From: a phage
Sequence record: PZ452595.1
Direction: 5' to 3' (one strand)
DNA: 64,000 nt
Made by a program: the position numbers and the translations under genes. The stretch's first letter is position 1. Each line of letters opens with the position of its first letter. The notes under the pieces are model-generated. The model saw nothing but the letters and a program-made list of their open reading frames with translations, did no database searches and was not told the DNA's origin. Shown piece by piece: positions 8,011-64,000 of the stretch.

Positions 8011-8024
8011 TCTTTGACGATTTA

Positions 8025-8042: not shown

Positions 8043-8058
8043 TTAGTTGTTTTTATGG

Positions 8059-8066
8059 TATAAATA
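8059..8066 (+). promoter_or_regulatory. T4 late promoter motif TATAAATA (P24)
   Basis: Exact TATAAATA about 28 nt upstream of the gene 24 ATG. Confidence 0.6.
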
Positions 8067-8093
8067 AATCATATAAACCAAAAGGAAAGCGCA

Positions 8094-12130: not shown

Positions 12131-12811
12131 TTATTTTAATGTTACGAAAGAAGAATTGCGTGTTTCACGAATTAAAACTGATCCGTCGCGATTAATGTAA
12201 TAAATTAAGCTAAACAAAGTTTGGTGTGCTGACGCGTGTTCAAAACTAGTTGGATGAGATTTCCAATCAGGAGTTTCAGCGATCCATTGATAAATCCACC
12301 AAGGAACCGTACAGAATCCTGGATTTTTCCCCAATAATTGAAGATTCGGGCTAAAGTTTTCCGGAAGAGTAAATACAGACGGCTTTTCAGATTCAATAAT
12401 CTTATCTACAGCTTGTTCAAACTTTTCTTCAACAAAAGGAGTGTCTTCAATCAAAACATCAGTATTTTCAGGAATTTTATCCGTTTCTACCACTTCAATT
12501 TTAATATCAGATTTAACTGGAGAATCAATCAGAAGTGCTGCTTCTGGATTAACTTCTTCATCGTCATATTTTAATCCCTCTGCAGCATCAGCAGCATCAA
12601 TTAAGTCTTTAATAGATAACCCATCAGTCTCTGGCATAGGTTCACTAGCGAGCTTCTGGAGGGCTTCTTCAATATCAACAACGATATTATCAAAAGATTT
12701 ATTCTTTTTGACCTTTATACCAAATTGCTCAGCATATTCAGCTAATTTAGCTTTAGCTTCTTTATTATCATCAAGAGCCTTTAACTCTGCAATATAATCT
12801 TTATCTATCAT
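12131..12811 (-). CDS. inh: Inh, inhibitor of prohead protease
   Basis: 226 aa in the T4 inh position between hoc and uvsW. Confidence 0.65.
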   Translation of the reverse strand: MIDKDYIAELKALDDNKEAKAKLAEYAEQFGIKVKKNKSFDNIVVDIEEALQKLASEPMPETDGLSIKDLIDAADAAEGLKYDDEEVNPEAALLIDSPVKSDIKIEVVETDKIPENTDVLIEDTPFVEEKFEQAVDKIIESEKPSVFTLPENFSPNLQLLGKNPGFCTVPWWIYQWIAETPDWKSHPTSFEHASAHQTLFSLIYYINRDGSVLIRETRNSSFVTLK

Positions 12812-12824
12812 AATATTTCCTCAG

Positions 12825-12832
12825 TATAAATA
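12825..12832 (+). promoter_or_regulatory. T4 late promoter motif TATAAATA (PuvsW)
   Basis: Exact TATAAATA 30 nt upstream of the uvsW ATG. Confidence 0.55.
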
Positions 12833-12861
12833 TAGATATATTTATTACATGGTATTTAGAC

Positions 12862-14373
12862 ATGACTGACATTAAAGTACATTTTTATGATTTTAGTCAC
12901 GTGAGAATTGATTGTGAAGAAAGTACATTTCATGAACTCCGTGATTTCTTTAGCTTCGAAGCTGATGGGTATCGTTTTAATCCGAAATACAAATATGGCC
13001 ACTGGGATGGACGAATCCGTCTTTTAGATTATAATCGTCTTCTTCCATTCGGCTTAGTCGGGCAAATTAAAAAGTTCTGTGATAACTTTGGCTATAAAGC
13101 CTGGATTGACCCACAAATTAACGAAAAAGAAGAATTATCAAGAAAAGATTTTGATGAATGGCTTTCTAAATTAGAAATCTATTCAGGAAATAAAAGAATT
13201 GAACCACATTGGTATCAAAAAGATGCAGTGTTCGAAGGATTAGTTAATCGTCGTAGAATTCTTAATCTTCCAACATCCGCCGGTAAATCTTTAATTCAAG
13301 CTTTGCTTGCGCGATATTATTTGGAAAATTATGAAGGTAAAATTCTTATCATTGTTCCAACAACTGCTTTGACAACTCAGATGGCTGATGACTTTGTTGA
13401 CTATCGTTTATTCAGTCATGCAATGATAAAGAAAATTGGTGGCGGAGCATCAAAAGATGATAAATATAAAAATGATGCACCAGTCGTTGTTGGTACATGG
13501 CAAACTGTAGTTAAACAACCAAAAGAATGGTTCTCACAGTTTGGAATGATGATGAATGATGAATGTCATCTTGCTACAGGAAAAAGTATTTCATCTATCA
13601 TATCAGGTTTAAATAACTGCATGTTCAAATTTGGTTTATCTGGTTCATTACGTGATGGCAAAGCCAATATCATGCAGTATGTTGGAATGTTTGGTGAAAT
13701 ATTTAAGCCAGTAACGACTTCTAAATTAATGGAAGATGGACAAGTAACTGAGCTAAAAATTAATAGTATTTTTCTTCGCTATCCAGATGAGTTCACTACT
13801 AAATTAAAGGGAAAAACTTACCAAGAAGAAATAAAAATTATTACTGGGCTCAGTAAAAGAAATAAATGGATCGCTAAATTAGCTATTAAGCTTGCGCAAA
13901 AAGATGAAAACGCTTTTGTCATGTTTAAACATGTATCGCACGGTAAAGCTATTTTCGATTTAATTAAAAATGAATACGATAAAGTTTATTACGTATCAGG
14001 GGAAGTTGATACTGAAACCCGCAATATAATGAAAACCTTAGCTGAAAATGGTAAAGGAATAATTATAGTAGCTAGTTATGGTGTATTTTCTACTGGTATT
14101 TCAGTTAAAAATCTGCACCACGTTGTTTTAGCACACGGTGTTAAATCAAAAATCATTGTATTACAAACAATCGGTCGTGTATTACGTAAGCATGGTTCTA
14201 AGACAATAGCAACAGTCTGGGACCTCATAGATGATTGTGGTGTTAAGCCAAAATCTGCTAATACGAAAAAGAAATATGTTCATTTGAACTATCTTTTAAA
14301 ACACGGCATTGATCGTATTCAGCGCTACGCAGATGAAAAATTTAATTACGTAATGAAAACAGTTAATTTATAA
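12862..14373 (+). CDS. uvsW: UvsW recombination/repair helicase
   Basis: 503 aa with SF2 helicase motifs (Walker A PTSAGKS, DECH box); N-terminus matches T4 UvsW as recalled. Confidence 0.93.
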   Translation: MTDIKVHFYDFSHVRIDCEESTFHELRDFFSFEADGYRFNPKYKYGHWDGRIRLLDYNRLLPFGLVGQIKKFCDNFGYKAWIDPQINEKEELSRKDFDEWLSKLEIYSGNKRIEPHWYQKDAVFEGLVNRRRILNLPTSAGKSLIQALLARYYLENYEGKILIIVPTTALTTQMADDFVDYRLFSHAMIKKIGGGASKDDKYKNDAPVVVGTWQTVVKQPKEWFSQFGMMMNDECHLATGKSISSIISGLNNCMFKFGLSGSLRDGKANIMQYVGMFGEIFKPVTTSKLMEDGQVTELKINSIFLRYPDEFTTKLKGKTYQEEIKIITGLSKRNKWIAKLAIKLAQKDENAFVMFKHVSHGKAIFDLIKNEYDKVYYVSGEVDTETRNIMKTLAENGKGIIIVASYGVFSTGISVKNLHHVVLAHGVKSKIIVLQTIGRVLRKHGSKTIATVWDLIDDCGVKPKSANTKKKYVHLNYLLKHGIDRIQRYADEKFNYVMKTVNL

Positions 14374-14386
14374 GGGCTTCGGCCCT
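14373..14386 (+). other. Short hairpin (GGGC-UUCG-GCCC) overlapping the uvsW stop
   Basis: Short stem with UUCG tetraloop between uvsW and uvsW.1; possible attenuator. Confidence 0.35.
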
Positions 14387-14398
14387 TTGGAGAAAAAG

Positions 14399-14629
14399 AT
14401 GTTACTAGAATTTAAACAATTTCTTTATGAAGCTTCTATTGATGAATTTATGGGTAAAATTGCCTCTTGCCAAACGATAGAAGGTTTAGAAGAACTTGAA
14501 GCTTATTATAAGAAAAGAGTTAAAGAAACTGAATTAAAAGATACTGATGACATCTCAGTCAGAGATGCTTTGGCAGGAAAAAGAGCTGAATTAGAAGATT
14601 CAGACGATGAAGTAGAAGAAAGCTTTTAA
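14399..14629 (+). CDS. uvsW.1: UvsW.1 small acidic protein
   Basis: Track ORF starts at TTG 14387; ATG at 14399 with SD GGAG gives 76 aa. Confidence 0.75.
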   Translation: MLLEFKQFLYEASIDEFMGKIASCQTIEGLEELEAYYKKRVKETELKDTDDISVRDALAGKRAELEDSDDEVEESF

Positions 14630-14880: not shown

Positions 14881-14973
14881 TTATAACCCCATCTTAAAGC
14901 GCATTTCTTGTACACGCTTTAAACATGCTTCCATTTCTGCTAAAAGTCTAAATACTTCTTTATAATTTGTCAT
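14881..14973 (-). CDS. Possible 30 aa micro-ORF
   Basis: Hand-translated MTNYKEVFRLLAEMEACLKRVQEMRFKMGL, packed between neighbouring ORFs; weak support. Confidence 0.25.
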   Translation of the reverse strand: MTNYKEVFRLLAEMEACLKRVQEMRFKMGL

Positions 14974-14975
14974 AT

Positions 14976-15203
14976 TTACCCCATATCTCTCATATGCATA
15001 TCAATGCCCATATCTTTAGAATAAAAATATTCATCAAGATATCCGGCAAATTTTCCTTTAATATAAAGGACATCTTCACCACACGGGTGGTCGGCCAGGA
15101 TACGAATATCCTGACGCTTAAGATTATGCTTTTTCATTAAGAATTGAATCTCAGTTTCAAATTCTTCTTCATAATTAAAAGCATCATCAATGTTATATCT
15201 CAT
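14976..15203 (-). CDS. Hypothetical protein (position of T4 uvsY.-1)
   Basis: 75 aa ORF immediately downstream of uvsY on the - strand. Confidence 0.6.
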   Translation of the reverse strand: MRYNIDDAFNYEEEFETEIQFLMKKHNLKRQDIRILADHPCGEDVLYIKGKFAGYLDEYFYSKDMGIDMHMRDMG

Positions 15204-23324: not shown

Positions 23325-23378
23325 TCCTCATGTTATGTCAGTAAGACTACTATAACACAACACGAGGGACTTGTAAAC
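23325..23378 (-). promoter_or_regulatory. Early promoter plus 5' UTR cassette, copy 1
   Basis: On the - strand: GTTTAC, 18-bp spacer, TGn-TATAGT, then GAGGA SD before the ATG; 54-bp near-identical copy at 39187..39240. Confidence 0.5.
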
Positions 23379-25435
23379 TACATTTTGAACTTTTTAGACA
23401 TTCCGTTGATGTTAACCAAAGAAGCCAAGATTTGAGAAACTTCGTTTTCCTCTTCTTTTGATTCTTCTACAAGGAATTGATTAAATCCAGCCATTGGACG
23501 AACTTCACCAGTTTCCATTAGATGGTCGCCATCATATACTGATTCTTCTAATTGTTCAGAAGGAGGAACGATTGTACCTTCGATTAGATACTTGTTATAA
23601 GCAGTTTCTTTCATAAAGTACGTACTTACTTTATTAATCTTCAGTAAAATTCCACGAGGTAGAATAACTTCAGCTTCTGATGGAAATCCTGATAAATGAC
23701 CTGGAACGATAACTTTGATTCGCTCAGCTCCTTTAATTACCATACCCACGCTAGTTTCAGCATCTTCATTAGCATATGTAGAATGACTACCCATATGCAT
23801 CAAATCTTCTGCATCAACAGAACCTTCTCCTTCGCCAGAAAATACCGCACCGGAATCATCTAAGGCCATATAGTTTTTACCATGCTCACCGAAGATATTT
23901 GGTTTAAGCGATGTGGATACGAAGTTCTTGAAATAGAACATTTTATTTTCAATATTATGACGTAAAGTTTTAAAGGTAACTTCTTGTCCACGATAAAGAG
24001 TAGTTCCTGGAGGAAGAACTGAACCTTTAGCGAATGCAGAATCCAACGTCTCGATGTGCTTAATAGCTCGTTCCATATATTCTTCACGGGTAGAATCTGG
24101 TTTACCCAAAAGGAACGAGTTCATTTCAACATATGAATCTGCACAATAATCTTCAATTACATCAGATTCAGCTTGAGTTAATCCTTTTGGAGTTACTTCG
24201 GTGCTTGCGTATTCATATGCCTGAGCAGCAGATTCATTAATCAATTTATAAATGCCATTCATGACAAATTGAATAATAGCTGTCTTTTCATCTGGCGTAG
24301 CTTTAGAACCTTTAACCAAATCATTGATAATTTTCTTAATAACATCAAAGCTATTAGAAATATTAATATCAGCAAGATCGCTTAAAATTTTATCAGTTTT
24401 ATAATCAAAGAATTCTTTATTCTTTAAATATTCTTGAGAACCTTGATATGTTATATCGCTCTGCAACTTGATAGATGGATCACGTAAACGCGCATGGGCT
24501 AATGCAATATGATTTCGGAAACTTTCTAGTTCATAATCGCTAGATTTAAAACGAGAAGCACTTCTCATACCACCGATAGCTCCTTTGCTGAAGTTTGAAC
24601 CAATCTGAATAACGCCAGAGTTCATTGGTCCTTCTGCTTTATATACCGGAACTTTAGATTCAAACTCTTGATATTTCTTAGCAGCGAAGCTATCACCCTG
24701 AAGTGAAGCATCGACAGTAGAATATTGAGCTTGTGCTGCTAATCGACGACTAATTTTAGTTTTTTGAATAACAGCTTGATCCGTGCGCTTATCATTTTCT
24801 AAAGCAATAGAAGCAGCAACAGCAACAGCTTTAGGAACAGCATTACCTGTTTTAACATCTACATAAACATCACCGACCTTTGATTCAACTTTTGTGAATA
24901 ACTCAGTTGAAATAGGAGGTACACCTGGAATGTCTTCTAAATTGGCATTTTTACGGTAAACCATAATATATGCGTACTTTTTATCATAGTCCCAGATTTC
25001 CTTTAAAAGAACATATCGACCTGCTCCTTTAGTACGTACTAAACGGTCAGCAATAACTTGCATTTGACGAGCTGCGCCATTTGTTTTACTCTTTAGTACG
25101 CGGAATAAGCATGCGTCAATTTTATACTGCTTCATTGTTTGAAGAGCAGTATCAAAAACAGCATTAATGACGCCAATTGGATTTCCACCCAAGTTTCTAA
25201 GCTTAACCAGCGATAATTTCTCGTTGACGCCTATCATTACGATATGCATCATTTTATCGCCTGGCTTAACGTTTTTATTTGTATCACCGCCAGAGGTGTA
25301 TGTACAAAATCTAAATCCAGGAAGCACACTTTCTTCGCCGGCTTGAATAGCAAAAATTTGTGGTATTTTATGCTTAGGATTTAAGTTAACAACCGGCGCC
25401 GAAGCGCCGTCAAATAATTCTGTAATAAGTTCCAT
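23378..25435 (-). CDS. alt: Alt-family ADP-ribosyltransferase, paralog 1
   Basis: 685 aa (T4 Alt is about 682 aa); C-terminal region carries ART-type R, STS and ExE motifs (YRGQ, FVSTSL, EAEVILPRG). Confidence 0.85.
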   Translation of the reverse strand: MELITELFDGASAPVVNLNPKHKIPQIFAIQAGEESVLPGFRFCTYTSGGDTNKNVKPGDKMMHIVMIGVNEKLSLVKLRNLGGNPIGVINAVFDTALQTMKQYKIDACLFRVLKSKTNGAARQMQVIADRLVRTKGAGRYVLLKEIWDYDKKYAYIMVYRKNANLEDIPGVPPISTELFTKVESKVGDVYVDVKTGNAVPKAVAVAASIALENDKRTDQAVIQKTKISRRLAAQAQYSTVDASLQGDSFAAKKYQEFESKVPVYKAEGPMNSGVIQIGSNFSKGAIGGMRSASRFKSSDYELESFRNHIALAHARLRDPSIKLQSDITYQGSQEYLKNKEFFDYKTDKILSDLADINISNSFDVIKKIINDLVKGSKATPDEKTAIIQFVMNGIYKLINESAAQAYEYASTEVTPKGLTQAESDVIEDYCADSYVEMNSFLLGKPDSTREEYMERAIKHIETLDSAFAKGSVLPPGTTLYRGQEVTFKTLRHNIENKMFYFKNFVSTSLKPNIFGEHGKNYMALDDSGAVFSGEGEGSVDAEDLMHMGSHSTYANEDAETSVGMVIKGAERIKVIVPGHLSGFPSEAEVILPRGILLKINKVSTYFMKETAYNKYLIEGTIVPPSEQLEESVYDGDHLMETGEVRPMAGFNQFLVEESKEEENEVSQILASLVNINGMSKKFKM

Positions 25436-25438
25436 GAT

Positions 25439-27535
25439 TTATCCTTGAACGAACTTGTAAGGCATGTTTGTAATATCTATGCAAGACGCAATAATTCCAA
25501 GAGATGATTCTACTTTCTGTTTAACATTTGATGAAACAAATGATGCAAAGTCAACTCTGTCTTCTATTTCAATATCACCTGTCATTGTAACTACTTCGCC
25601 GGTTTCCATTAGACGGTCACCGTCATAAATTACCGATTCGGTGAGTTCTTCCGTGGTCATAACTTCAGCTTGAATGAGTTTTGTATTATTAGATGTTGTT
25701 CCGTCATTATTAGAAGCATCGGTTATTTTATTAACTTTGACCATCAATCCGCGCGGTAGAATAACTTCAGCTTCTGTTGCTATTCCGAGACTTCCTGGAT
25801 ATACAACATTAACTTTATGTGCGCCGTCAATTGCCCATCCTATTTGAACTTTAACGTATTCAGGATTTTCTTTATACGCTCTTATTTCGTTTGGATTAAT
25901 AGTTATTCCTTCTTCATTTTTATCAACTGTTAATTCATTGCGAGCTTCTGGTTCTAAAAGACCAATACCAGCATGTGTAATTCCAAAACGTCCAAAAATG
26001 ATAGGAGTTAAAGAAGTAGATACAAAATTTCTGAAATAGAACACTTTATTTTTAACTAGCGCTTCGTATATAGGAGCAGTCATACTTTGAGCACGATAAA
26101 CTGTAATGCCTTCCGGTATACGGTCACCATTTTCAAAAGCTGAATCTAAATTATTTATAGCAGATTCAATTTCTTTTTCACTCATTACATCATATCGTTC
26201 TGGATTGTAACGACCTAAAAGAAGATTATTAATATCTGTATATCCTGAGCCACAATATTCTCTAATGCCGCGCTTTTGTGATGGAGTATATTTAGAACCA
26301 TCACGGGCAATAGTAATATCAATCATTGGGCCTGCACCAATTCCAGAAAAACTATAAATCATTCGTTTGAGGAATTTAGTTTTTGCCGCATTCCAGGCAT
26401 TTTTAGTTATTTCTCCCCAGACTTCATCTGACTGCCCTTTACGAGTTTTATTATGTTTATCAAGCCAATTATCTTTGTATTCTTCAAAGAATTTATTAAC
26501 AGCTGCTGCGTATTTCTCTAAACATTTTATTGAAGTAGTTGGTTCATTTTTGATTGCGTTAAAAATTACATCTTTAATTTTTTCTGAAACTTCATCAACC
26601 TCACTTTTTGAAAAGAATTTATAGTCATAGTGAAGTTCATTCGCAGTTCCTTCGGCAATAATTTTTGCTGCCTTAGTTTTAGAAGCTAATGAATTAATTC
26701 CAAGCTTCATTTCTTCTGCTTCGGGAATTAAAGGAGCGGTAGCAGGTTTATTGAAATTAGCTGCGGTAGATTCATACTTCTGGAATAATTCACTTTCAAA
26801 TCTAGAAGACTCTAACGATTGACTTTGTGCAATTGCTCTACGGGAAATTTTAACTTTAACGATTACAGCTTGGTCAGAACGTTTATCGTTTTCTTGTGCA
26901 ATAGATGCTGCAATTGCCTCATTTTTAGTTACTTGAGCCCCAGTATCTTTATTGATATAAACATCACCGACCTTCGATTCAACTTTAGTAAAGAGCTCGG
27001 TACTAATTTCCGGAACTCCTGGAATGTCTTCTAGTGATACATTTTTGCGATGTATAAGAATATATGCATACTTTTTATCATAATCCCAGAGTTCCTTAAG
27101 AAGGACGTATCTGCCACCTGAACGACTACGGATAAGTCTATCAGCAATAACTTGAATTTGTCGAGCTTGACCAGCGGTTTTAGACTTAAGAATACGAAGC
27201 ATACAGGCATCAATTTTATACTGACGCATTGTTTGCATCGCAACAGTAAAAACTGAATTGATATAATTAATTGGGCTTGGACCAAGACCTTTTAATTTAG
27301 CAATTGAACCTTTAGCAGTTAATGTAAAAGGAACAATATGCATCATTTTATCGCCCATTTTTAAATCGCGATTAGTATCACCTCCAGATGTATAGGTACA
27401 TAAACGAAAGCCTGGTTGTTCAATTGCATCATCAACGTGAACTGAAAAAATTTGCGGTATTTTCTTCTTTGGATTTAAGTTTGTAATCGGAAGAGTAGTA
27501 TCTTCGTCAAATAATTCTGTAATGAGTTCCATCAT
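25439..27535 (-). CDS. Alt-family ADP-ribosyltransferase, paralog 2
   Basis: 698 aa; N-terminal 230 aa roughly 60-65% identical to paralog 1 by eye; same R, STS and ExE motifs (YRAQ, FVSTSL, EAEVILPRG). Confidence 0.85.
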   Translation of the reverse strand: MMELITELFDEDTTLPITNLNPKKKIPQIFSVHVDDAIEQPGFRLCTYTSGGDTNRDLKMGDKMMHIVPFTLTAKGSIAKLKGLGPSPINYINSVFTVAMQTMRQYKIDACMLRILKSKTAGQARQIQVIADRLIRSRSGGRYVLLKELWDYDKKYAYILIHRKNVSLEDIPGVPEISTELFTKVESKVGDVYINKDTGAQVTKNEAIAASIAQENDKRSDQAVIVKVKISRRAIAQSQSLESSRFESELFQKYESTAANFNKPATAPLIPEAEEMKLGINSLASKTKAAKIIAEGTANELHYDYKFFSKSEVDEVSEKIKDVIFNAIKNEPTTSIKCLEKYAAAVNKFFEEYKDNWLDKHNKTRKGQSDEVWGEITKNAWNAAKTKFLKRMIYSFSGIGAGPMIDITIARDGSKYTPSQKRGIREYCGSGYTDINNLLLGRYNPERYDVMSEKEIESAINNLDSAFENGDRIPEGITVYRAQSMTAPIYEALVKNKVFYFRNFVSTSLTPIIFGRFGITHAGIGLLEPEARNELTVDKNEEGITINPNEIRAYKENPEYVKVQIGWAIDGAHKVNVVYPGSLGIATEAEVILPRGLMVKVNKITDASNNDGTTSNNTKLIQAEVMTTEELTESVIYDGDRLMETGEVVTMTGDIEIEDRVDFASFVSSNVKQKVESSLGIIASCIDITNMPYKFVQG

Positions 27536-35102: not shown

Positions 35103-35338
35103 AGTACGCCATACACCCTTTGTGCTTCAACTAATCCATCAAAATCCAGTTTAAGATGCGATATTTGATCGCCATCACCTGGATTTACAATTACTAATAC
35201 TGAACGAGGAGTTTCGGTAATAACACGAACCGATGTTTCAGGAAATCGTTCAGAAACCTTATTTACCAATTCCTGTGCAAATAGCTTAACTTTTTCTTGG
35301 AATTCTTTAACAGTAATTGGTTTTTCACTTAGCAGCAT
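35099..35338 (-). CDS. Hypothetical protein (cd.2 position)
   Basis: 79 aa ORF. Confidence 0.55.
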   Translation of the reverse strand: MLLSEKPITVKEFQEKVKLFAQELVNKVSERFPETSVRVITETPRSVLVIVNPGDGDQISHLKLDFDGLVEAQRVYGVL

Positions 35339-35859
35339 GTTGATCCCAGCTCCTTACTTTCAACGTTTTTAACTAATTTGACAGAAACTAATTCAGCATC
35401 TTGAGTAATCATTACCGGACCTTCTTCATACTCTTCAAGATATTCTAGAGCTTTCTTTTTAGCTTCTTCCTTCGTATCAGTTTGAGCATAGATATAAAAC
35501 ATACAACCAGTAATACCTACTACTTTCCACTTAATTTCTTTATCAGCTTTAATTTCAAATTTACTGACAGAATCATCTTTTTGAACTTCTTCGAAAAAAG
35601 AATATTCTAACATATAAGCAATTGAAAATAACGGGCTAACTTTATAGGATTCGCCCATTACATCAACAGCTTTATACCAGCAGTCATCAATTTCGCGTTT
35701 AATGCTAATAACATTTTTCGCAGGATCTATTTTTACTTTAAATGAATTTTCCCCAATAAACTGGGCAATTCGTTTATTAGCCCCGCAAGTTTCATTAAAA
35801 ATATCTTTATATCCAGTTTTAAAGCGATAAACCTTATCTTCTTCAAACCATTCGCTCAT
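35329..35859 (-). CDS. Hypothetical protein (cd.3 position)
   Basis: 176 aa ORF. Confidence 0.6.
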   Translation of the reverse strand: MSEWFEEDKVYRFKTGYKDIFNETCGANKRIAQFIGENSFKVKIDPAKNVISIKREIDDCWYKAVDVMGESYKVSPLFSIAYMLEYSFFEEVQKDDSVSKFEIKADKEIKWKVVGITGCMFYIYAQTDTKEEAKKKALEYLEEYEEGPVMITQDAELVSVKLVKNVESKELGSTCC

Positions 35860-36590: not shown

Positions 36591-37808
<1,218 letters not shown>

Positions 37809-37812
<4 letters not shown>

Positions 37813-39243: not shown

Positions 39244-40831
<1,588 letters not shown>

Positions 40832-40838
40832 AATAAAA

Positions 40839-40852
40839 TGGGCCTTGCGGCC
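40839..40852 (-). other. Hairpin (GGGCC-GCAA-GGCCC on the - strand) in the denA leader
   Basis: GC stem between an upstream GGAG and the AUUUUAUU-AUG start of denA; terminator and/or translational structure. Confidence 0.45.
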
Positions 40853-40858
40853 CACTCC

Positions 40859-42037
40859 TTAAAAGTATTTTTTAAAACTCATCATAACTTTATCATCAAC
40901 ATCATTATCAATCTGTGCAACAAGGTAAGATGACAGTTCTACTTCTTGTGGCGCGGATTGAACATTATCAGAATTAAGATATTCACGAATCCAAGGATAC
41001 GGATGTTTAACCGGAGCATCGGTAATTGGGCATGGAAGACCACACTGTTTCATACGAGATACAGTTAAGTAATCAATAAAGCTCCACATGCTATTTGTAT
41101 TTAATCCAGGAACATCGCCGTCTTTAAATAAATGAACTGCCCAATCTTTTTCTTGGCGGTTAACTTCCATGAAAATATCAACTGCTTCTTGTTCACACTC
41201 TTGAGCAATTTTAACCCATTCATCGCCATCAGTGCCAAGTTGAAGTTGACGAATAATATATTGAGTGCCTTTAAGGTGAAGCTGCTCATCACGTGCAATG
41301 AACTTCATAATCTTGGCATTACCTTCCATGATTTCCATGTTTTTATGGAAGTTAAAGGTACATGCGAAAGATACATAAAAACGAATAGCTTCCAATGCGT
41401 TGATTACATGCAAACAGAGGTAAAGAGATTTCATTAGCTCACGCTTCCAATATGTCTCATGCTCAATAGCATCTTCAATAACGTCTTCGTCTGCATTAAT
41501 TTCTTTTTGGTATTCGATATCAGCTTTAGCGTTTTCCCAATAACGAGTTTTAATCAGAACATCATCATAATAACGTCCAATGGATTCAGCACGTTTCATA
41601 ATAGCTTCATCTAATACAATTTCATCAAATACCTTCGATGGATCAGTATAAAGATTTCGCATGATATGTGTATATGAACGGCTGTGAATAGTTTCACTAA
41701 AAGTCCACGTAGCAACCCATGTATCAAGGCTTGGGTCTGAAATTAATGACATAAGTACAGCAGACGGCGCACGACCCTGAATGCTATCCAAAAGTGATTG
41801 ATACTTCAGATTATTAGTAAAAATATTTTGCTGATACTGAGGAAGCTTATTAAACTGTGCAGCATCCATCATCAAGTTTACTTCTTCAGGACGCCAGAAA
41901 AATGATAATTGCTTTTCGGTTAAATCTTCAAAAACTTTATGACGTTGAATATCATAACGCGCAATACCAAGACCTGAACCAAAAAACATAGGTTCTTTTA
42001 AAACATCAACTGGATTTGTATTAAAAACTGTGCTCAT
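40859..42037 (-). CDS. nrdB: Ribonucleotide reductase small subunit, uninterrupted
   Basis: 392 aa continuous ORF with the diiron/tyrosyl-radical family sequence; no intron-sized interruption. Confidence 0.93.
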   Translation of the reverse strand: MSTVFNTNPVDVLKEPMFFGSGLGIARYDIQRHKVFEDLTEKQLSFFWRPEEVNLMMDAAQFNKLPQYQQNIFTNNLKYQSLLDSIQGRAPSAVLMSLISDPSLDTWVATWTFSETIHSRSYTHIMRNLYTDPSKVFDEIVLDEAIMKRAESIGRYYDDVLIKTRYWENAKADIEYQKEINADEDVIEDAIEHETYWKRELMKSLYLCLHVINALEAIRFYVSFACTFNFHKNMEIMEGNAKIMKFIARDEQLHLKGTQYIIRQLQLGTDGDEWVKIAQECEQEAVDIFMEVNRQEKDWAVHLFKDGDVPGLNTNSMWSFIDYLTVSRMKQCGLPCPITDAPVKHPYPWIREYLNSDNVQSAPQEVELSSYLVAQIDNDVDDKVMMSFKKYF

Positions 42038-42063
42038 AAATTTTCCGCTTAGTTAATAGATAG

Positions 42064-42081
42064 TGACTCGTCCATGAGTCA
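42064..42081 (-). other. Hairpin in the nrdA-nrdB intercistronic region
   Basis: tgactc-gtccat-gagtca inverted repeat in a 51-bp intergenic spacer. Confidence 0.35.
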
Positions 42082-42088
42082 AATTATA

Positions 42089-44353
42089 TCATAATTTACA
42101 GGATGAACAATCTTCAGCTTTTGGAGTTTCTATTTCATAATCATCAGTACCAGAACCATCACGGGTATTATGATAATAGAAATTTTTTCCGCCAAAATAC
42201 CAAAAATACAAAAGGTCATCAATCATTATTGACATTGGAACCTTGCCTTTAGGGAAGATTTGGGGGTCATAATATGTATTCGCTGAAGCTGATTGACACA
42301 CCCATTTCAGCATAATAGCTACCTGCGTAAGATAAGGTTTATTACCTTTCTTAGCTAATTTCCATGTATAATCATAGAGGTCTATGTTATGCTCAATATT
42401 GGGCACGACTTGATTAAAGGAGCCCTCTTTTGATTCTTTAACAGAGACTGGTCCACGTGGAGGCTCGATACCGTTTGTACTGTTAGAAACTTGGGAAGAT
42501 GACTCACATGGCATAAGTGCTGATAATGTGCTATTACGGATGCCAAAGAGCTTAAGGTCTTCCCGCAGCGACGACCAGTCACAAACGTATTTTGGAGCTG
42601 CGATTTGGTCAATCTTTTTATTGTACCAGTCGATAGGTAATTCGCCTCGAGACCAACGAGTGTCTGAATAATATTCGCAAGGTCCTTTTTCTTTGGCGAG
42701 CTTAATGGATGCTTTAATGAGTCCATACTGTAATCTCTCAAATAGTTCATGTGTTAAATCGTTAGCATCTTCATAAGAAGCAAAGTTACTTGCCAGCCAA
42801 GCTGCATAGTTAGTAACACCTACACCGAGGTTACGACGCTTTTTAGCTTTTTCTGCTTCAGGAACTGGATATCCTTGGTAATCCAAAAGATTATCAAGAG
42901 CGCGAACTTGAACTTCTGCCAATTCATTAATTTTATCTTGGTCTTGCCAGTCAAAATTATCTAGTACGAATGCAGAGAGAGTACACAATCCAATTTCAGC
43001 ATCAGGACTATTCACATCATTTGTTGGAATAGCAATTTCACAGCACAAGTTACTCTGACGAATAGGTGCCTTTTCACGAATAAACGGAGTATAGTTATTC
43101 GTATTATCAATGAACTGTACATAAATCCTTGCTGTTCCTGAGCGTTCAGTCATGAGCAATTCAAATAGTTCACGGGCTTTAATACGCTTTTTACGAATAT
43201 TAGGGTCTTTTTCTGCTGCTTCGTATAATTCACGGAAACGGTCTTGGTCTTTAAAATAAGAATAATAAAGCTCGCCACCCATTTCATGCGGACTGAACAA
43301 AGTAATGTAATCGTTCTTTCCAAAACGTTCCATCATCAAATCATTCAGCTGAACACCATAATCCATATGACGAATGCGGTTTTCTTCTACACCTTTGTTA
43401 TTTTTCAAAACGAGAAGATTTTCAACTTCCAAATGCCAAATAGGATAATAAGCAGTAGCAGCGCCGCCACGAATTCCACCCTGTGAGCATGATTTAACAG
43501 CAGTCTGAAAATGTTTCCAAAAAGGAATAACCCCAGTATGGCGTACTTCACCCATGCCAATCTTAGAACCTTCGGCACGAATCATACCAACGTTAATACC
43601 GATTCCAGCTCGTTTGGAAATATATTCAACAATTGAAGCAGAAGCCTTATTGATAGACTTCAGCGAATCTCCTGCCTCAATAACAACGCATGAACTAAAC
43701 TGTCGAGTCGGAGTACGACAACCAGCCATAATAGGAGTTGGCAATGAAATCTGTCGAGTAGATACTGCTTCATAAAAACGAATAACATGTTTTAATCTAT
43801 CAACAGGTTCATCTTGATGCAGTGCCATTCCAATAGTCATAAATGCAAACTGCGGAGTTTCATAAATTTGACCAGTGGTTTTATCTTTAACTAGATATTT
43901 TTCTTTTAATTGCATCGCCCCGGAATAAGTAAATTCCATATCCCGCTCGTGCTTAATTTTTGATTCTAAAAATGTAATTTCTTCTGCTGAATATTTTGAC
44001 AATAATTCAGGGTCATATTTACCTTCATTTACACAGTAAGAAATATGGTCAATAAATGAACGTGGTTCATACTGCCCATAAACATGCTTACGAAGAGCAA
44101 ACATTAAACAGCGTGCAGCTACATATTGATAATCAGGTTCTTCAACCGAAATAGAATTCGCAGCAGCCTTAATGACAATAGTCTGAATGTCATCAGTTGT
44201 CATTCCATCACGGAGATATGATTTAATATTTTCATATAATTCATAAGGATCTACTGATGTTCCCTCAGCTGCCCAAGATAAAACTTTAATAATTTTTTGT
44301 GGGTCAAAGCTCTGAGAAACACCACTACTTTTGATAACATTAATTAATTGCAT
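42089..44353 (-). CDS. nrdA: Ribonucleotide reductase large subunit
   Basis: 754 aa, same length as T4 NrdA; C-terminal cysteine pair (CSSCKL). Confidence 0.95.
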   Translation of the reverse strand: MQLINVIKSSGVSQSFDPQKIIKVLSWAAEGTSVDPYELYENIKSYLRDGMTTDDIQTIVIKAAANSISVEEPDYQYVAARCLMFALRKHVYGQYEPRSFIDHISYCVNEGKYDPELLSKYSAEEITFLESKIKHERDMEFTYSGAMQLKEKYLVKDKTTGQIYETPQFAFMTIGMALHQDEPVDRLKHVIRFYEAVSTRQISLPTPIMAGCRTPTRQFSSCVVIEAGDSLKSINKASASIVEYISKRAGIGINVGMIRAEGSKIGMGEVRHTGVIPFWKHFQTAVKSCSQGGIRGGAATAYYPIWHLEVENLLVLKNNKGVEENRIRHMDYGVQLNDLMMERFGKNDYITLFSPHEMGGELYYSYFKDQDRFRELYEAAEKDPNIRKKRIKARELFELLMTERSGTARIYVQFIDNTNNYTPFIREKAPIRQSNLCCEIAIPTNDVNSPDAEIGLCTLSAFVLDNFDWQDQDKINELAEVQVRALDNLLDYQGYPVPEAEKAKKRRNLGVGVTNYAAWLASNFASYEDANDLTHELFERLQYGLIKASIKLAKEKGPCEYYSDTRWSRGELPIDWYNKKIDQIAAPKYVCDWSSLREDLKLFGIRNSTLSALMPCESSSQVSNSTNGIEPPRGPVSVKESKEGSFNQVVPNIEHNIDLYDYTWKLAKKGNKPYLTQVAIMLKWVCQSASANTYYDPQIFPKGKVPMSIMIDDLLYFWYFGGKNFYYHNTRDGSGTDDYEIETPKAEDCSSCKL

Positions 44354-44670
44354 AAGTCCTCAACTTGAAAATCGTCTTTAAACAATCGGTTAACTATATG
44401 AGCTATTATATCACCATGACACGGCTTTGGTTTACATGTGCATCCTAGCCTCATTCCACGTAAAGGCTCTAAATGTGCTTTAGTTATTTCTCCGGATTTA
44501 ATTCGACGTATAAAATCTTTTTTGAATAATTCAATGGCAGCCTCCCGGCTGCCAGCATCTTTACCGACGTAATTTCCCCAAAATGTACCACGGTGAATAT
44601 TAACATCAAAGTCGGATTTATATTTATTCACTACCCGACATAGACGGCCCGCGCGGTGATAATTCGGCAT
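44344..44670 (-). CDS. Hypothetical Cys/His-containing protein (nrdA.1 position)
   Basis: 108 aa ORF with [11 protein letters not shown] segment. Confidence 0.55.
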
Positions 44671-44899
44671 ATTGTTTTTCCGTTAAAACAGTAATATCAT
44701 AATAACAGTCAGAAGAAATTTTAATGGTGGAAACTTTATTATCAAAATACTCACGGGTCATTTTATGAGTATAATATTTTTTGCCATAAATGATAATAGG
44801 CTGATTTGGTCCTGGAACTTCTAACTCGCTTGGGTTAGGAAGTGTAAAAAGAACAACGTCAGAAGTATCTTTAAATCGTAAAATCATAAATCCTCGCAA
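44624..44899 (-). CDS. Hypothetical protein (nrdA.2 position)
   Basis: 91 aa track ORF; start uncertain, overlaps the previous ORF. Confidence 0.45.
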
Positions 44900-44907
44900 T
44901 AATAAAA

Positions 44908-45767
44908 TTATACCGCCATCTTTCCTTTAATTGGCGGGTGAGATACATAGTCGTTAAGAACAAAATTATGCGGCTTTGCGAATTGACTCAACCAAAATAC
45001 CTGTGATTCTGTGTCCCATTCATCAAATTCATCTGGGAATTTTAATTGTAATTCGCATAAATCCATAGGTTCACGACGCAAAATTTCTTTACATTGTTCT
45101 ACGTGATTCATATAGATATGAGTATTACCGCCAGAAAATATCAAATCTCCCGGAATAAGATTACATATCTTAGCTACAATATGAACTAACGCAGCATATG
45201 ATGCAATATTAAATGGAAGACCGAGGAAAACATCTACTGATCGTTGATACCACTGAAGGTCAAGGTATCCATTACGAACATTAAATTGATAGAACATATG
45301 ACAAGGTGGTAATGCCATCTGCTTGAGTTCAGCTGGATTCCATGCTGAAACAATTTGACGCCTATCATTTGGCAGTTTTTTAATACGATCAATAACTTCT
45401 ATAATTTGGTCTACACCACCAAAATCACGCCACTGTTTTCCATAAATTGGACCAAGTTCACCGCTATGGTATCCTAAATCTTTTGCTTGATTTTCGTAAT
45501 TTTCATCCCAAACTGTTTTGCCTTGGATTAACGAATCATGTTGAATTAATCGCAAATCATTGACATTTGTGCTTCCCGATAAAAACCATATTAGCTCAGC
45601 AATGCAAGCTTTCCAGGCGAGCTTCTTAGTTGTTACTGCAGGAAAACCTTTAGTTAAATCCCAGCGTAATTTAGTACCGAACAAAGCAATTGTTCCTGTG
45701 CCTGTTCGGTCATCGGTTTCGTAGCCATTTTCCAGGATATCTTTAATTAAAAATTGGTATTGTTTCA

Positions 45768-45768
<1 letters not shown>
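44908..45768 (-). CDS. td: Thymidylate synthase, uninterrupted
   Basis: Track start is TTG at 45780; the ATG at 45768 (MKQYQ...) gives 286 aa; continuous ORF with no intron. Confidence 0.93.
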
Positions 45769-46793
<1,025 letters not shown>

Positions 46794-46809
<16 letters not shown>

Positions 46810-47153
46810 TGAAAAGAGCTAGAAGCAAATCCGCTATCTTTAATCATTTTAACTAAAGTTACCATTCCTCTGTTAACTGCTTGTGCGATTTCATCAAAAA
46901 CTTCATCAATATCACCATAAAGATCGCTAAAAAGTTCTAATACGTTCTTCTGAACTTTTAATTTACAGCCAACAAATTCGCCTACAGTAAATTCGTTTCC
47001 GCCAATTCCAGTGTAAAACGTAATTACACCAGTTAATGGTCTTTCACTAGAACATAGGTCGTGTGATAAATTAATATAAGCCGTCCCGGGTGTAGTTTTA
47101 AGTTGGCAACGAATACTTACTCGAGCAATTCCAGCTACACGAATGTCAGACAT
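46794..47153 (-). CDS. Hypothetical protein (frd.2 position)
   Basis: 119 aa ORF. Confidence 0.55.
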
Positions 47154-47466: not shown

Positions 47467-47760
47467 TTATTTTTGAATTTTATCGAGCCACTTACCAAGC
47501 TTAATCATTTCTTTAGTAGCCTTTTCCATACTTCTGAACTTAACCAATAGAGGATAGGTATCGACACCCATAACTAAACTGGTTACAAGACTGTGTTCAC
47601 CCACAAGCCATAATGAATACGTTTGAATATCGAGCCCGTAATTTCTGTCTTTATGGACCCGTACACCCATCACTTCAAATTTCTCACTAGCTTTTTCTAC
47701 CGCATCCAGGAAATCATCTTTAGTCATATTAGGCCTTAAAAGTTTTTCGCAAAAGTTCAA
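47467..47760 (-). CDS. Hypothetical protein
   Basis: 97 aa track ORF; start uncertain. Confidence 0.45.
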   Translation of the reverse strand: MNFCEKLLRPNMTKDDFLDAVEKASEKFEVMGVRVHKDRNYGLDIQTYSLWLVGEHSLVTSLVMGVDTYPLLVKFRSMEKATKEMIKLGKWLDKIQK

Positions 47761-49444: not shown

Positions 49445-49543
49445 TTTTATTTCCTTTTTAATTTAATTAACAGTTGGTGCTATGACGATGTATGACCTCA
49501 TAGCTGGTCAGTAAGATAATTATAATCTATTTATAATAAGCAA
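49445..49543 (-). promoter_or_regulatory. Gene 32 leader with A/U-rich translational operator and late promoter motif
   Basis: Unstructured AUUAAAUUAAAAAGGAAAUAAAA before the AUG; reverse complement of TATAAATA at 49528..49535. Confidence 0.5.
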
Positions 49544-57530: not shown

Positions 57531-60500
57531 ATGGCTACTTTAAAACAAATACAATTTAAAAGAAGCAAAACTGCAGGAGCACGTCCTGCCGCTTCAGTAT
57601 TAGCCGAAGGTGAATTGGCTATAAACTTAAAAGACCGTGTACTTTTTACTAAAGATGACCAAGGAAATATTATTGATCTGGGTTTTGCTAAAGGCGGTAG
57701 TATTGACGGGAATGTTATTCATACAGGCAATTATAACCAAACTGGCGATTATACTTTAAATGGTGTCTTCACTCAGACTGGTAATTTTAATTTAACTGGT
57801 ATTGCTCGAGTAACTCGCGATATTATTGCCGCTGGGCAGATTATGACTGAAGGCGGAGAACTTATTACAAAAAGTTCAGGTACAGCGCATGTTCGTTTTT
57901 TCGATAACAATAGTCGCGAACGCGGAATCATTTATGCCCCGGCTAATGATGGTTTAACTACACAAGTACTTAATATCAGGGTTCAAGACTACGCCGCTGG
58001 TAGCGAAAGCACTTATGCATTTTCAGGCAGTGGACTATTTACTTCACCTGAAGTATCAGCATGGAAATCTATTTCGTCTCCACAAATTCTGACCGACAAA
58101 GTTATTACAAATGGGAAGAAGACGGGAGATTATGACATTTATTCTATGGCAGACAACGTTCCATTGTCTGAAAGCACTACTGCTATTAATCATCTCCGTG
58201 TTATGCGCAATGCTGTAGGCGCTGGTGTATTCCATGAAGTTAAAGATAATGATGGAATAACTTGGTATACTGGAGATGGCTTAGACACTTATCTTTGGTC
58301 GTTTACCTGGACCGGTGGATTGAAAGCAGGCCATTCTATTTCTGTTGGTACTCCTGGTGGCAATAAAGGATACTCTGAATTAGGGACTGCTTCAATTTCT
58401 CTTGGCGATAATGATACCGGGCTAAAATGGCATCAGGACGGATATTTCTATACAGTAAACAACGGAACAAGAACTTTCATCTATGGTCCAGGAGAAACGC
58501 AAAGCCTTAGAAAAATGGTTATGGCTTATTCTCCAGATGGGCTTCTTATGACAACGCCACCGACAGAAAACTATGCTTTGGCTACTGTTGTTACTTACCA
58601 TGATAATAACGCATACGGTGACGGTCAAACTCTTTTAGGATATTATCAAGGCGGTAACTATCATCATTATTTTCGCGGTAAGGGTACTACAAACATTAAT
58701 ACTCACGGCGGTTTGTTAGTTACTCCTGGTAATATTGACGTTATTGGTGGTTCTGTTAATATCGATGGTAGAAATAATGCTTCTACACTGATGTTTAGAG
58801 GTAACACAACTGGTAGTAGTTCAGTTGATAATATGACAATTTCCGTTTGGGGCAATACGTTTACTAATCCTAGTGTAGGTAATCGTAAAAACGTCATGGA
58901 AATTTCTGATGCAACTAGCTGGATGAGTTATATTCAAAGACTTACAACAGGTGAAGTAGAAATGAACGTTAACGGTTCATTTGAATCATCTGGTGTTACT
59001 GCTGGAAATAGAGGAGTTCACACAACGGGCGAAATTTCATCTGGGGCTGTGAATGCGCTTCGTATTTGGAACGCAGATTATGGAGCTATTTTTAGACGTT
59101 CAGAAGGTAGTCTTCATATTATTCCAACTGCTTATGGTGAAGGTAAACATGGTGATATCGGCCCACTTCGCCCGTTTAGTATGGCTTTAGATACCGGTAA
59201 AGTTACTATTCCAGATTTACAATCAAGTTACAATACGTTCGCAGCGAACGGCTATATTAAATTTGTTGGTCATGGAGCGGGTGCCGGCGGTTATGACATT
59301 CAATATGCTCAAGCGGCTCCTATTTTCCAGGAAATTGATGATGATGCTGTAAGCAAATATTATCCTATTGTTAAACAGAAGTTTTTAAATGGTAAAGCCG
59401 TTTGGTCTTTAGGTACTGAAATTAATTCGGGTACATTCGTTATTCATCATCTGAAAGAAGATGGATCACAGGGCCATACATCAAGATTTAATGCTGATGG
59501 TACAGTTAATTTCCCCGATAACGTTCAGGTCGGCGGCGGTGAAGCTACTATTGCTCGCAATGGTAATATTTTCTCAGATATTTGGAAATCGTTTACTTCT
59601 GCGGGAGACACTACAAATATTCGCGATGCGATAGCTACTCGTGTTGCCAAAGAAGGCGATACGATGACCGGTAGGTTGACTTTATCTGCTGGAAATGATG
59701 CCCTTGTTTTAACTGCGGGCGCTGGCGCTTCATCGCACATCCGTAGTGATGTAGGTGGTACAAATAATTGGTATATAGGCAAAGGCGGCGGCGACAATGG
59801 TCTAGGTTTTTACAGTTACATTACACAAGGCGGTGTATACATAACAAATAACGGCGAAATAGCGCTTTCTCCTCAAGGACAAGGAACATTTAATTTTAAT
59901 AGAGACCGCCTTCATATAAACGGTACACAATGGACTGCGCACCAGGGTGGTGGCTGGGGAAACCAATGGAATCAAGAAGCTCCGATATTTATAGATTTTG
60001 GTAATGTTGGTAATGATAGTTATTATCCTATTATTAAAGGAAAATCTGGTATTACTAATGAAGGATACATATCTGGCGTTGATTTTGGTATGCGACGCAT
60101 TACTAATAACTGGGCGCAAGGTATTATTCGTGTAGGTAACCAGGAAAATGGTTCTGATCCACAAGCTATCTATGAATTTCATCACAATGGAGTTCTGTAT
60201 GTTCCTAACATGGTTAAAACTGGAGCAAGATTATCAGCTGGCGGTGGTGACCCGGTGTGGCAAGGCGCATGCGTTGTTATTGGTGATAATGATACTGGAT
60301 TAGTTCATGGTGGTGATGGACGAATTAATATGGTTGCAAATGGAGTTCATATTGCTTCATGGTCTTCATCTTATCATTCTCATCCAGGCCTTTGGGATTC
60401 AAACGGAGCTTTGTGGACAGAAGTTGGCAAAGCAATTATTTCTCATGGTCATTTAGTTCAGGCGAATGACAGCTATTCAACGTTTGTCCGTGATGTTTAT

Positions 60501-60842
60501 GTCCGCTCTGATATTCGTGTTAAAAAAGACCTCGTTAAATTTGAAAATGCTTCTGAAAAGCTTTCTAAAATTAACGGTTACACTTATATGCAGAAACGTG
60601 GAACTGACGAAGAAGGTAATCAGAAATGGGAACCTAACGCCGGTTTAATTGCTCAAGAAGTTCAAGCTATTTTACCAGAATTAGTTGAAGGCGACCCGGA
60701 TGGTGAAGCTTTACTTCGTTTGAACTATAACGGTGTAATTGGTTTAAATACAGCTGCAATCAATGAGCATACTGCAGAAATTGCGGAACTTAAATCAGAA
60801 ATTGAAGAACTTAAAGCATTAGTTAAATCATTGTTAAAATAA
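57531..60842 (+). CDS. 37: Long tail fibre distal subunit gp37 with C-terminal intramolecular-chaperone-like domain
   Basis: 1103 aa; last 120 aa (SDIRVKKDL...YTYMQKRG...coiled-coil end) resemble auto-cleaving fibre chaperone domains. Confidence 0.9.
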
Positions 60843-60846
60843 TAAG

Positions 60847-60862
60847 AGGGGCTTCGGCCCCT
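60847..60862 (+). terminator. Hairpin after gene 37 (GGGGC-UUCG-GCCCC)
   Basis: Stem with UUCG tetraloop between gene 37 and the gene 38 SD. Confidence 0.5.
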
Positions 60863-60873
60863 TGGAGGTTTAT

Positions 60874-61650
60874 ATGGCAGTAACAGGACCGTGGGTAGGA
60901 TCGTCTGCAGTAGTTAATACAGGACAAAATTGGATGGGTGGTGCCGCGCAGAGATTGAGAATGGGAATTCCGTTTTGGATGAGTAATATGATAGGTCGAT
61001 CTGTTGAAATAATTCACACGCTTGGAGCAGACCATAACTTCAATGGTCAATGGTTCCGAGATAGATGTTTTGAGGCAGGTAGTGCACCTATAGTGTTTAA
61101 TATCACTGGAGATTTAGTATCATATTCTAAAGATGTTCCTTTATTCTTCATGTATGGAGATACACCCAATGAATATGTTCAGTTGAATATACACGGCGTA
61201 ACGATGTATGGTCGTGGCGGTAATGGCGGTAGCAATAGTCCTGGCTCAGCTGGAGGTCATTGTATTCAAAACGATATTGGTGGGAGACTAAGAATTAATA
61301 ATGGTGGAGCTATTGCAGGCGGCGGTGGCGGCGGTGGCGGCGGATATTATTCTCCTTTTTCACAAATGAGATTGACCTTTGGCGGCGGCGGTGGGCGTCC
61401 GTTTGGTGCACCTGGCGGATCTATTGATATGCAATCAGGAGCGACTGGCGGTACTATTTCTGCACCTGGCTCAGGATCCGTGAATGGTATCTATAATGGT
61501 GGAAACGGTGGTGAAGTAGGTTCCGCGGGAGGTAGATGCAATATTCGCGGTCAAGGATCTGAATATAATGGCGGCGATGCTGGTTATGCCGTCATAGGGT
61601 CCGCTCCAACGTGGATAAATGTTGGAGCAATATATGGTCCAAGAGTATAA
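60874..61650 (+). CDS. 38: T2-type tail fibre adhesin gp38 with glycine-rich motifs
   Basis: Track start is TTG at 60862; the ATG at 60874 with SD GGAGG gives 258 aa; poly-Gly islands ([37 protein letters not shown]) separated by variable segments. Confidence 0.85.
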
Positions 61651-63352: not shown

Positions 63353-63632
63353 ATTGAATCACCTTCAGTTGACGTTTTAGTTCTTTTATCATCTCTTCGT
63401 TCATTGCAATATAAAGATCGCGTAGAGCAGGTTTTAGCATTCCATTTACCGGAGAACTAAATGGGCATACATAATCTTTTCCTACGAGCTTTTTAGTGAA
63501 TTCCATATCACAGAACTTAAATCCCGGCTCATTGGTATAAATTCCCCAATTGGTTGACATCATTTTATTAGCATATTCCAGTGCCTGGATTTGATTCATA
63601 ATTCCATCAATTTGAAACTTTTTAATATTCAT
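63336..63632 (-). CDS. Hypothetical protein
   Basis: 98 aa ORF. Confidence 0.5.
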   Translation of the reverse strand: MNIKKFQIDGIMNQIQALEYANKMMSTNWGIYTNEPGFKFCDMEFTKKLVGKDYVCPFSSPVNGMLKPALRDLYIAMNEEMIKELKRQLKVIQFGQGN

Positions 63633-64000
63633 TAGTAAAGGTCCTCAGAGTAAAGTTCTTTTTCACTACCACCACGTTCAATACGTACTTGTCCAGCGTA
63701 AGTTGCAATAATCATTGCTTCTTCACGTGTCCAATAATTACTATATTGGTCAATAAACCCTTGGTCATCATCACAAACTTGTTGAGTAACTAATTGAGGT
63801 TTAACTACATCTAAAACTTCTGCCATATCTTTAGAATAATGACGAGCACCTGGAATAATAAGAGTTCGTCCATCTTTTAATTTAAAACGGTTGGCTGCAC
63901 AAACAATTCGTCGTTGATACTTTTGGTTTTCATCCCAATACGCAGTCTGCCAACAGATTTCAGGAACTTCATCTAAAACATTTTGTTCTGTATATTCACC
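63632..64000 (-). CDS. Hypothetical protein, possibly 5'-truncated by the window edge
   Basis: Track lists 63632..63826 (64 aa), but the same frame stays open from the window edge with no stop; true start may lie beyond 64000. Confidence 0.4.

Follow-up and report, generated by a model that had tools for sequence, protein, structure and literature searches.

Are the nucleotide-precursor genes of the T4-like phage in sequence record PZ452595.1 really free of the introns and homing endonuclease genes that occupy them in T4, and, if they are, would this phage be a recipient for such elements? The question concerns above all the thymidylate synthase gene td and the ribonucleotide reductase genes nrdA and nrdB, which lie in a stretch of 64,000 nucleotides (nt) of this record, hereafter the window. 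A preliminary description of the window had proposed that td and nrdB are continuous, that no mobE- or seg-type gene lies between nrdA and nrdB, between genes 23 and 24 or between inh and uvsW, that denA encodes the only GIY-YIG protein, and that the phage is a naive recipient for homing, closer in this respect to T2-type genomes. All statements of absence made below refer to this 64-kb window, the rest of the phage genome lying outside it.

The empty sites of T4 mobile elements

The window, which extends from gene 18 to the arn region, belongs to a Tequatrovirus (T4-like) genome. It was aligned with blastn to the first 165 kb of the T4 genome (NC_000866) and its annotation, with which it is colinear from 98504 to 162528 at a nucleotide identity of mostly 93-99%. 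Its operon frd-(68-amino acid open reading frame)-td-nrdA.2-nrdA.1-nrdA-nrdB-denA is located entirely on the minus strand and is colinear with T4 137517-145690 (blastn), each open reading frame (ORF) with a T4 counterpart being 87-100% identical to it in tblastn. Both the gene order and the curated family scores of td, nrdA and nrdB place it in the Tequatrovirus (T-even) nucleotide-precursor cluster. We are highly confident that the region is the standard T-even nucleotide-precursor operon in an unoccupied configuration. This is a matter of presence or absence rather than a statistical signal, and chance is no issue.

The alignment to T4, which the preliminary description had named as a check, revealed six clean deletions in the window, exactly at the annotated mobile elements of T4. 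All six elements that T4 carries in this span are missing: segD, segE, the nrdB intron with its I-TevIII remnant, nrdB.1 together with mobE, the td intron with I-TevI, and segG. The last of these sites had not been mentioned before. The genes and sites concerned are the following.

44908-45768, minus strand: td, thymidylate synthase, 286 amino acids (aa) from ATG, uninterrupted (ORF list; TIGR03284)
45195-45260, minus strand: unoccupied td intron site (between 45220 and 45219) with the I-TevI homing-site region around it (blastn and junction alignment)
40859-42037, minus strand: nrdB, class Ia ribonucleotide reductase beta subunit, 392 aa, uninterrupted (ORF list; NCBIfam NF006576)
41361-41364, minus strand: empty nrdB intron insertion site (blastn breakpoints against T4 138457/139058; junction alignment)
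42089-44353, minus strand: nrdA, class Ia ribonucleotide reductase alpha subunit, 754 aa (98.5% aa identity to T4 over 754 aa)
42038-42088, minus strand: nrdA-nrdB spacer of 51 base pairs (bp) without ORF (50/51 identical to the T2 spacer)
8011-8093, plus strand: gene 23-24 spacer, 83 bp, empty segD site (83/83 identical to T2)
12812-12861, no strand assigned: inh-uvsW spacer, 50 bp, with TATAAATA, empty segE site (50/50 identical to T2)
49445-49543, minus strand: gene 59-32 spacer, 99 bp, with TATAAATA, empty segG site (98/99 identical to T2)

In td, the T4 intron with I-TevI (1017 bp) is missing and the two exons abut at 45219/45220 in the blastn comparison with T4. In nrdB, the group I intron of approximately 600 bp with the I-TevIII remnant is absent as a likewise clean deletion. 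Both exon junctions abut in frame and both translations are full-length, so that the continuity of td and nrdB, first read from the ORF list, holds in the comparison with T4 as well; an interruption of the T4 type, of about 1 kb in td and about 0.6 kb in nrdB at the known sites, was not found. Each gene is read as one continuous ORF, so that RNA splicing is not needed. The curated models recognise all three products well above their cut-offs, with 293 bits for td against TIGR03284 (cut-off 108), 485.7 bits for nrdB against NF006576 (cut-off 346) and 992.5 bits for nrdA against NCBIfam NF006578 (cut-off 813). The longest ORF of td comprises 290 aa when read from an upstream TTG, and the gene shows 99.9% nt identity to td of Shigella phage Sf21 (MF327007). 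The nrdB gene has the length of T2 nrdB, with 1107/1179 nt identical, while nrdA has the length of T4 nrdA and is free of inteins and other insertions.

The short spacers are not featureless DNA, but what they contain is limited to regulatory signals. Between nrdA and nrdB, where nrdB.1 and mobE of T4 (approximately 700 bp) are missing at 42038-42092 as a clean deletion in blastn, we found a TATAAT-like hexamer, a hairpin with a 6-bp stem and the ribosome-binding region of nrdB. For phages without mobE, Wilson and Edgell (PMC2790892) report that the middle promoter of nrdB is situated either in this spacer or within the 3' end of nrdA. Gene 23 (6445-8010) is followed after 83 bp by gene 24 (8094-9377), and this spacer carries a terminator-like hairpin and the T4 late-promoter motif TATAAATA, which is present in three of the four spacers (23-24, inh-uvsW and 59-32). 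According to blastn, the segD deletion corresponds to T4 106522-107310 against 8022-8081 of the window. The genes inh (12131-12811, minus strand) and uvsW (12862-14373, plus strand) are separated by 50 bp, the segE deletion spanning T4 112045-112679 against 12849-12867, and the segG deletion spans T4 147919-148541 against 49508-49542. No free-standing Seg (GIY-YIG) or Mob (HNH) gene was found at the 83-, 50-, 51- and 99-bp spacers, which bears out the earlier account of the first three. The figures given in the preliminary description all proved right.

Two variable segments were also observed within these genes. Residues ~234-263 of td (~44965-45065, minus strand) form a sharply bounded cassette of approximately 90 nt near the 3' end that is wholly unlike T4 and T2, the length of the protein still being 286 aa. 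The window version is also present in Escherichia phage vB_EcoM_Maryam (PQ799574) and Sf21, and the T4 version in Escherichia phage EC101 (OL310488); therefore, td has at least two cassette types, which recombine independently of the intron. In nrdB, residues ~160-200 (~41438-41558, minus strand), just upstream of the empty intron site, are variable with a net gain of 4 aa with respect to T4, and identity to T4 is only 84.5% in exon 1 versus 97.7% in exon 2.

Searches for hidden introns and endonucleases

When the 15 homing endonucleases of T4 and nrdB.1 were compared with the window by tblastn, nothing significant was obtained (best E = 0.021), while denA matched at 100%. The best match, of segF at 26756-27091, was discarded as a chance match, as it falls inside an Alt ADP-ribosyltransferase paralog (Pfam ADPrib_exo_Tox). 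Searches of the window with T4 intron and endonuclease DNA (blastn and nhmmer) likewise gave nothing credible. Apart from one 30-nt match to the beginning of the gene 23-segD spacer (E = 2e-5), located away from any empty site, none was below E = 0.003. Seg/Tev and Mob profiles built from the T4 proteins and run with hmmsearch against the six-frame translation of the window returned nothing below E = 1.7. With these profiles, all T4 endonucleases are recovered, even the 37-aa mobA remnant, which was outside the training set.

In the per-ORF comparison, seven ORFs of the window have no T4 counterpart (35329-35859, 37492-37812, 45768-45974, 46552-46809, 46794-47153, 47467-47760 and gp38). None of the seven contains a nuclease domain in Pfam, and the six small ones are also negative in PHROGs, NCBIfam and PADLOC, with no match to GIY-YIG, HNH, LAGLIDADG, NUMOD or other nuclease models. 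Among 50 small, uncharacterised or window-specific ORFs in all, with a further 40 small or uncharacterised ones scanned beyond these seven, Pfam found GIY-YIG in denA only and no HNH or other homing endonuclease domain. Large genes have T4 lengths at more than 90% identity, and therefore there is no room for inteins or fused domains.

40421-40855, minus strand: denA, endonuclease II, not a homing endonuclease (Pfam GIY-YIG; phrog_1111 endonuclease)

The Pfam GIY-YIG score of denA is 27.2 bits versus a cut-off of 22.6, and the protein is identical to T4 denA at 144/144 aa in tblastn (99.3% in the per-ORF comparison, in which residue 1 was set to M). It is the sole GIY-YIG protein found in the window, as had been claimed, and the GIY-YIG/HNH domain search that had been suggested as a check returned denA only. 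No homing endonuclease emerged from the translated searches, the profile searches, the Pfam scans or the alignments of the exon junctions.

A covariance search had been suggested as well. The Rfam scan of the window for group I introns (Intron_gpI, RF00028) gave none at the gathering score or at E <= 1, although the model is insensitive to T4 introns. In the control on the td-nrdB region of T4, whose introns occupy positions 13547-14563 (td) and 8458-9057 (nrdB) of the segment used, nothing was detected at the gathering score; under permissive settings only the nrdB intron appeared, with 35.7 bits versus a gathering score of 50, and the td intron was missed entirely. Hence, the absence of an intron match in the window stands, but as weak evidence. 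We rejected it as a decisive argument after the T4 control, and its low power has to be counted against the reading of an unoccupied operon. Because the td intron of T4 is missed, it is the junction alignments and not the covariance scan that carry the proof. More generally, the lack of a covariance hit does not prove that a phage gene is intron-free, since such scans under-call ORF-bearing phage introns.

T2-type alleles, their history and homing

About 1000 phage records related to the window were retrieved by megablast, none of them identical and the top ones at ~97-98% identity. The best matches were G2540, the RB3 group, Sf21/Sf22, RB27, AR1 and Maryam, the best reaching ~98% over 25 kb. 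T4 shares gene order and orientation with the window, at 93-99% nt identity over most of the span and with an identical denA protein. The phage that resembles the window at the sites in question is T2 (AP018813), in which td (861 bp) and nrdB (1179 bp) are also uninterrupted and the four spacers have the same lengths and are near-identical, as listed above. Both also have two full-length alt paralogs, the same allele at the MobE nick site and a gp38 of the adhesin type. The alleles at the T4 endonuclease sites are essentially those of T2, and the proposed proximity to T2-type genomes holds well. T2 and the window are not the same throughout, though: td of T2 is only 87% identical to that of the window at the nt level, with a different C-terminal cassette, the slot between frd and td holds a 115-aa ORF in T2 but an unrelated one of 68 aa in the window, and the 176-aa ORF of the window (35329-35859) is missing from T2.

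Whether the empty state is ancestral is a separate question. The sequence cannot show that the phage is naive, in the sense of never invaded, since an element lost through recombination with an empty allele leaves no trace behind. The most probable alternative is secondary loss. The lineage would once have had some of the introns or endonuclease genes and would since have been cured of them, either because they were precisely deleted or because they were exchanged for the empty alleles of co-infecting relatives. A cycle in which homing elements invade, decay and are lost has been discussed (PMC2988022), and T4 itself shows decay in the remnants of I-TevIII and mobA. Moreover, the region is mosaic, its td being nearly identical to that of Sf21 and far less similar to that of T2 while its spacers are T2-identical, so that allele replacement by recombination is taken to be frequent. 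Against these points, the searches with DNA, proteins and profiles brought up no remnant of these elements, and the junctions are exact and in frame. We regard secondary loss as considerably less probable than not.

When T4 is crossed with T2, the classical recipient is T2, and its part in marker exclusion as the partner poor in endonucleases has been known for decades; for mobE, inheritance of about 90% or more is reported from such crosses. T4 homing endonucleases cleave alleles that lack the endonuclease gene, whereupon repair brings in this gene along with flanking DNA. In a mixed infection with T4, a phage with T2-type sites would therefore be expected to lose these markers and to gain T4 elements. 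Given that the elements are absent and the sequences are of T2 type, it is fair to infer that the phage is T2-like and probably invadable, that is, susceptible to cleavage and homing. Three groups of observations bear on this reading.

The first group concerns the target of MobE.

41907-41924, minus strand: nrdB nt 114-131, MobE-dependent nick region, T2-type allele with codon 42 AAG (nick mapping in PMC2790892)

The MobE-dependent nicks in T2 nrdB were mapped in T4 x T2 crosses to nt 122-126, at codon 42 (Wilson and Edgell, PMC2790892), a codon that is AAG in phages without mobE and adjoins a FFWRPEE block (PMC2790892). In the window, codon 42 is AAG, FFWRPEE occupies aa 46-52, and nt 97-128 are identical to T2, while T4 is divergent there.

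The second group concerns I-TevI, whose 38-bp target is cleaved at two positions, 23 and 25 nt upstream of the point of intron insertion (PMC2988022). The window has the CAACG cleavage motif conserved at the expected distance. From the cleavage motif to position +25 there are 2 differences from T2, with 4 more in the outermost upstream bases compared. At the sequence level, the spacers, the MobE target features and the I-TevI site are all of the T2 type.

The third group comes from close relatives. Maryam and EC101 are among the best matches for the 11-kb region (~97%) and have the same 68-aa ORF between frd and td. Unlike the window, however, they have td interrupted exactly at 45219/45220 by an intron of 1017 bp with I-TevI, which shares 99.7% identity with that of T4. 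Their td genes are otherwise 96% (Maryam) and 91% (EC101) identical to that of the window, and in both the td surrounding the intron is only 90-93% identical to T4. A T4-like intron in a window-like td is the known signature of recent intron transfer into such alleles. Also among the best 11-kb matches are Sf21, RB27 and AR1, which are a few per cent divergent from the window elsewhere and have no homing endonuclease among the feature names listed; td of Sf21 is uninterrupted. In EC101, unlike the window, a 243-aa HNH gene of the MobE family lies between nrdA and nrdB (EC101 segment 4238-4969), and its product has no match in the window. This protein is 62% identical to T4 MobE at the N-terminus, whereas towards the C-terminus it is similar to MobB and SegE. 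As EC101 nrdB has the nick-region sequence of the window, the protein may have another target than T4 MobE.

Several results weigh against the idea of an invadable phage. A short T4-type patch in exon 1 beside the cleavage site of Maryam and EC101 was considered as proof of co-conversion, but it is mostly common to the intron-less T2 and the argument is weakened. The same applies to codon 42 AAG as a marker of MobE sensitivity, because EC101, with its MobE-family gene, has the same nick-region sequence; phages that have a Mob gene at nrdA-nrdB cannot be told from those that lack one by this sequence alone. In addition, the I-TevI site of the window differs from the exon junction of T4 at 6 positions, and the comparison of targets covered those of I-TevI and MobE only.

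These 6 differences, together with the low identity of nrdB exon 1 to T4, could also mean that the sites are empty but resistant, target-site polymorphisms protecting the phage from the T4 endonucleases so that it would be no recipient. We consider this unlikely. Differences from T4 are expected, since the T4 alleles are the protected or interrupted ones and T2 is the relevant comparison. I-TevI tolerates many substitutions in its site, and relatives with a window-like td, namely Maryam and EC101, did acquire the intron. With respect to T2, the MobE region has no change over nt 97-128 and the td site has 2 differences with CAACG intact (PMC2790892).

Lineage-variable ORFs and the frequency of empty sites

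The remaining features of the operon, and a second ORF without T4 counterpart, are as follows.

45971-46552, minus strand: frd, dihydrofolate reductase, 193 aa (97.4% aa identity to T4 frd)
45768-45974, minus strand: basic 68-aa ORF that separates frd from td and overlaps both at start and stop codons (phrog_9550, no Pfam family)
44624-44899, minus strand: nrdA.2 homologue (DUF5496; 86.8% aa identity to T4; Pfam PF17600)
44344-44670, minus strand: nrdA.1 homologue, 108 aa (DUF4326; 96.3% aa identity to T4 nrdA.1; Pfam PF14216)
35329-35859, minus strand: 176-aa ORF between cd.2 and cd.3 (missing from T4 and T2)

The 68-aa ORF is missing from T4, where frd and td overlap directly, and is not recognised as an endonuclease by any profile. 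As T4 has the overlap, T2 its 115-aa ORF and the window this one, the frd-td slot is variable between phages. The 176-aa ORF was considered as a possible new endonuclease, but Pfam, NCBIfam, PADLOC and PDB sequence searches were negative and nothing points to a nuclease. BLASTP gave no support to a weak link with goF in PHROG, and the single-sequence AlphaFold2 model, with a mean predicted local distance difference test score (pLDDT) of 38.5, is too poor for a fold search. The phage PaulHMueller has part of this ORF, with a putative homing endonuclease annotated next to it. The other small ORFs without T4 counterpart, all on the minus strand, encode 106 aa (37492-37812), 85 aa (46552-46809), 119 aa (46794-47153, DUF7247) and 97 aa (47467-47760), and each matches a PHROG of unknown function.

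It is very improbable that one of the small lineage-variable ORFs (68 or 176 aa) is a new selfish or homing-related cassette or an anti-homing factor, or that the cassettes of td (aa 234-263) and nrdB (aa ~170-200) are footprints of endonuclease-driven gene conversion. Still harder to credit is a cryptic or novel mobile element among the small ORFs without T4 counterpart, such as those of 68 aa (frd-td) and 176 aa (35329-35859). In its favour, these ORFs resemble free-standing endonuclease genes in occupying intergenic slots whose content differs from phage to phage, a Pfam family is lacking for five of the six, and covariance scans that miss the T4 td intron are weak evidence. On the other side, no nuclease model in Pfam, NCBIfam, PADLOC or PHROGs matches, 68 aa are too few for an endonuclease, and td, nrdA and nrdB are continuous and full-length. 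The 176-aa protein has an identity of at least 90% throughout the ~300 Tequatrovirus records in which it occurs, and its annotation is hypothetical in those listed.

Other differences lie further away in the window. Two full-length genes for Alt-like ADP-ribosyltransferases of 685 and 698 aa are arranged in tandem (23378-25435 and 25439-27535, minus strand); T2 has both copies, while T4 keeps of the first copy only the remnants alt.-1 and alt.-2. At 57531-61650 (plus strand), the C-terminal part of gp37 and the whole of gp38 are not T4-like, gp38 (262 aa) being of the adhesin type (Pfam GP38 and Gp38_N; PF05268), which implies a receptor specificity different from that of T4. Between uvsY.-1 and uvsY.-2, approximately 100 bp (14886-14986, minus strand) are missing from T4 and T2; this stretch has a possible 31-aa micro-ORF (MTNYKEVFRLLAEMEACLKRVQEMRFKMGL), followed by the late-promoter motif TATAAATA. 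Finally, the arn.3 homologue (63632-63826, minus strand) has only a 64-aa ORF preceded by an in-frame stop, versus 152 aa in T4. It may be truncated or split, its upstream part being only partly visible as the window ends at 64000.

The frequency of the empty state among relatives was estimated with short queries centred on the junctions, in which an insertion splits the match in two. The counts are approximate, given that records are duplicated and divergence also shortens a match. The site was uninterrupted in the following numbers of phage records with a match.

td site: 402/617
nrdB intron site: 509/618
nrdA-nrdB: 408/548
23-24: 598/809
inh-uvsW: 447/607
59-32: 357/499

Depending on the junction searched, the uninterrupted state therefore accounts for 65-82% of the matching records. 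It is T4, with its 15 homing endonucleases, that is the oddity, most related genomes having few (Edgell, Gibb and Belfort, PMC2988022). The empty state is the usual and long-known state of T4 relatives such as T2, and the finding that the td-nrd region is unoccupied is correct, ordinary and already known. Beyond annotation, to which it contributes T2-type unoccupied alleles at all six T4 mobile-element sites of the window, its importance is small. The phage could be of use as a natural recipient in homing or marker-exclusion crosses, or for mapping the mosaic history of the td-nrd region.

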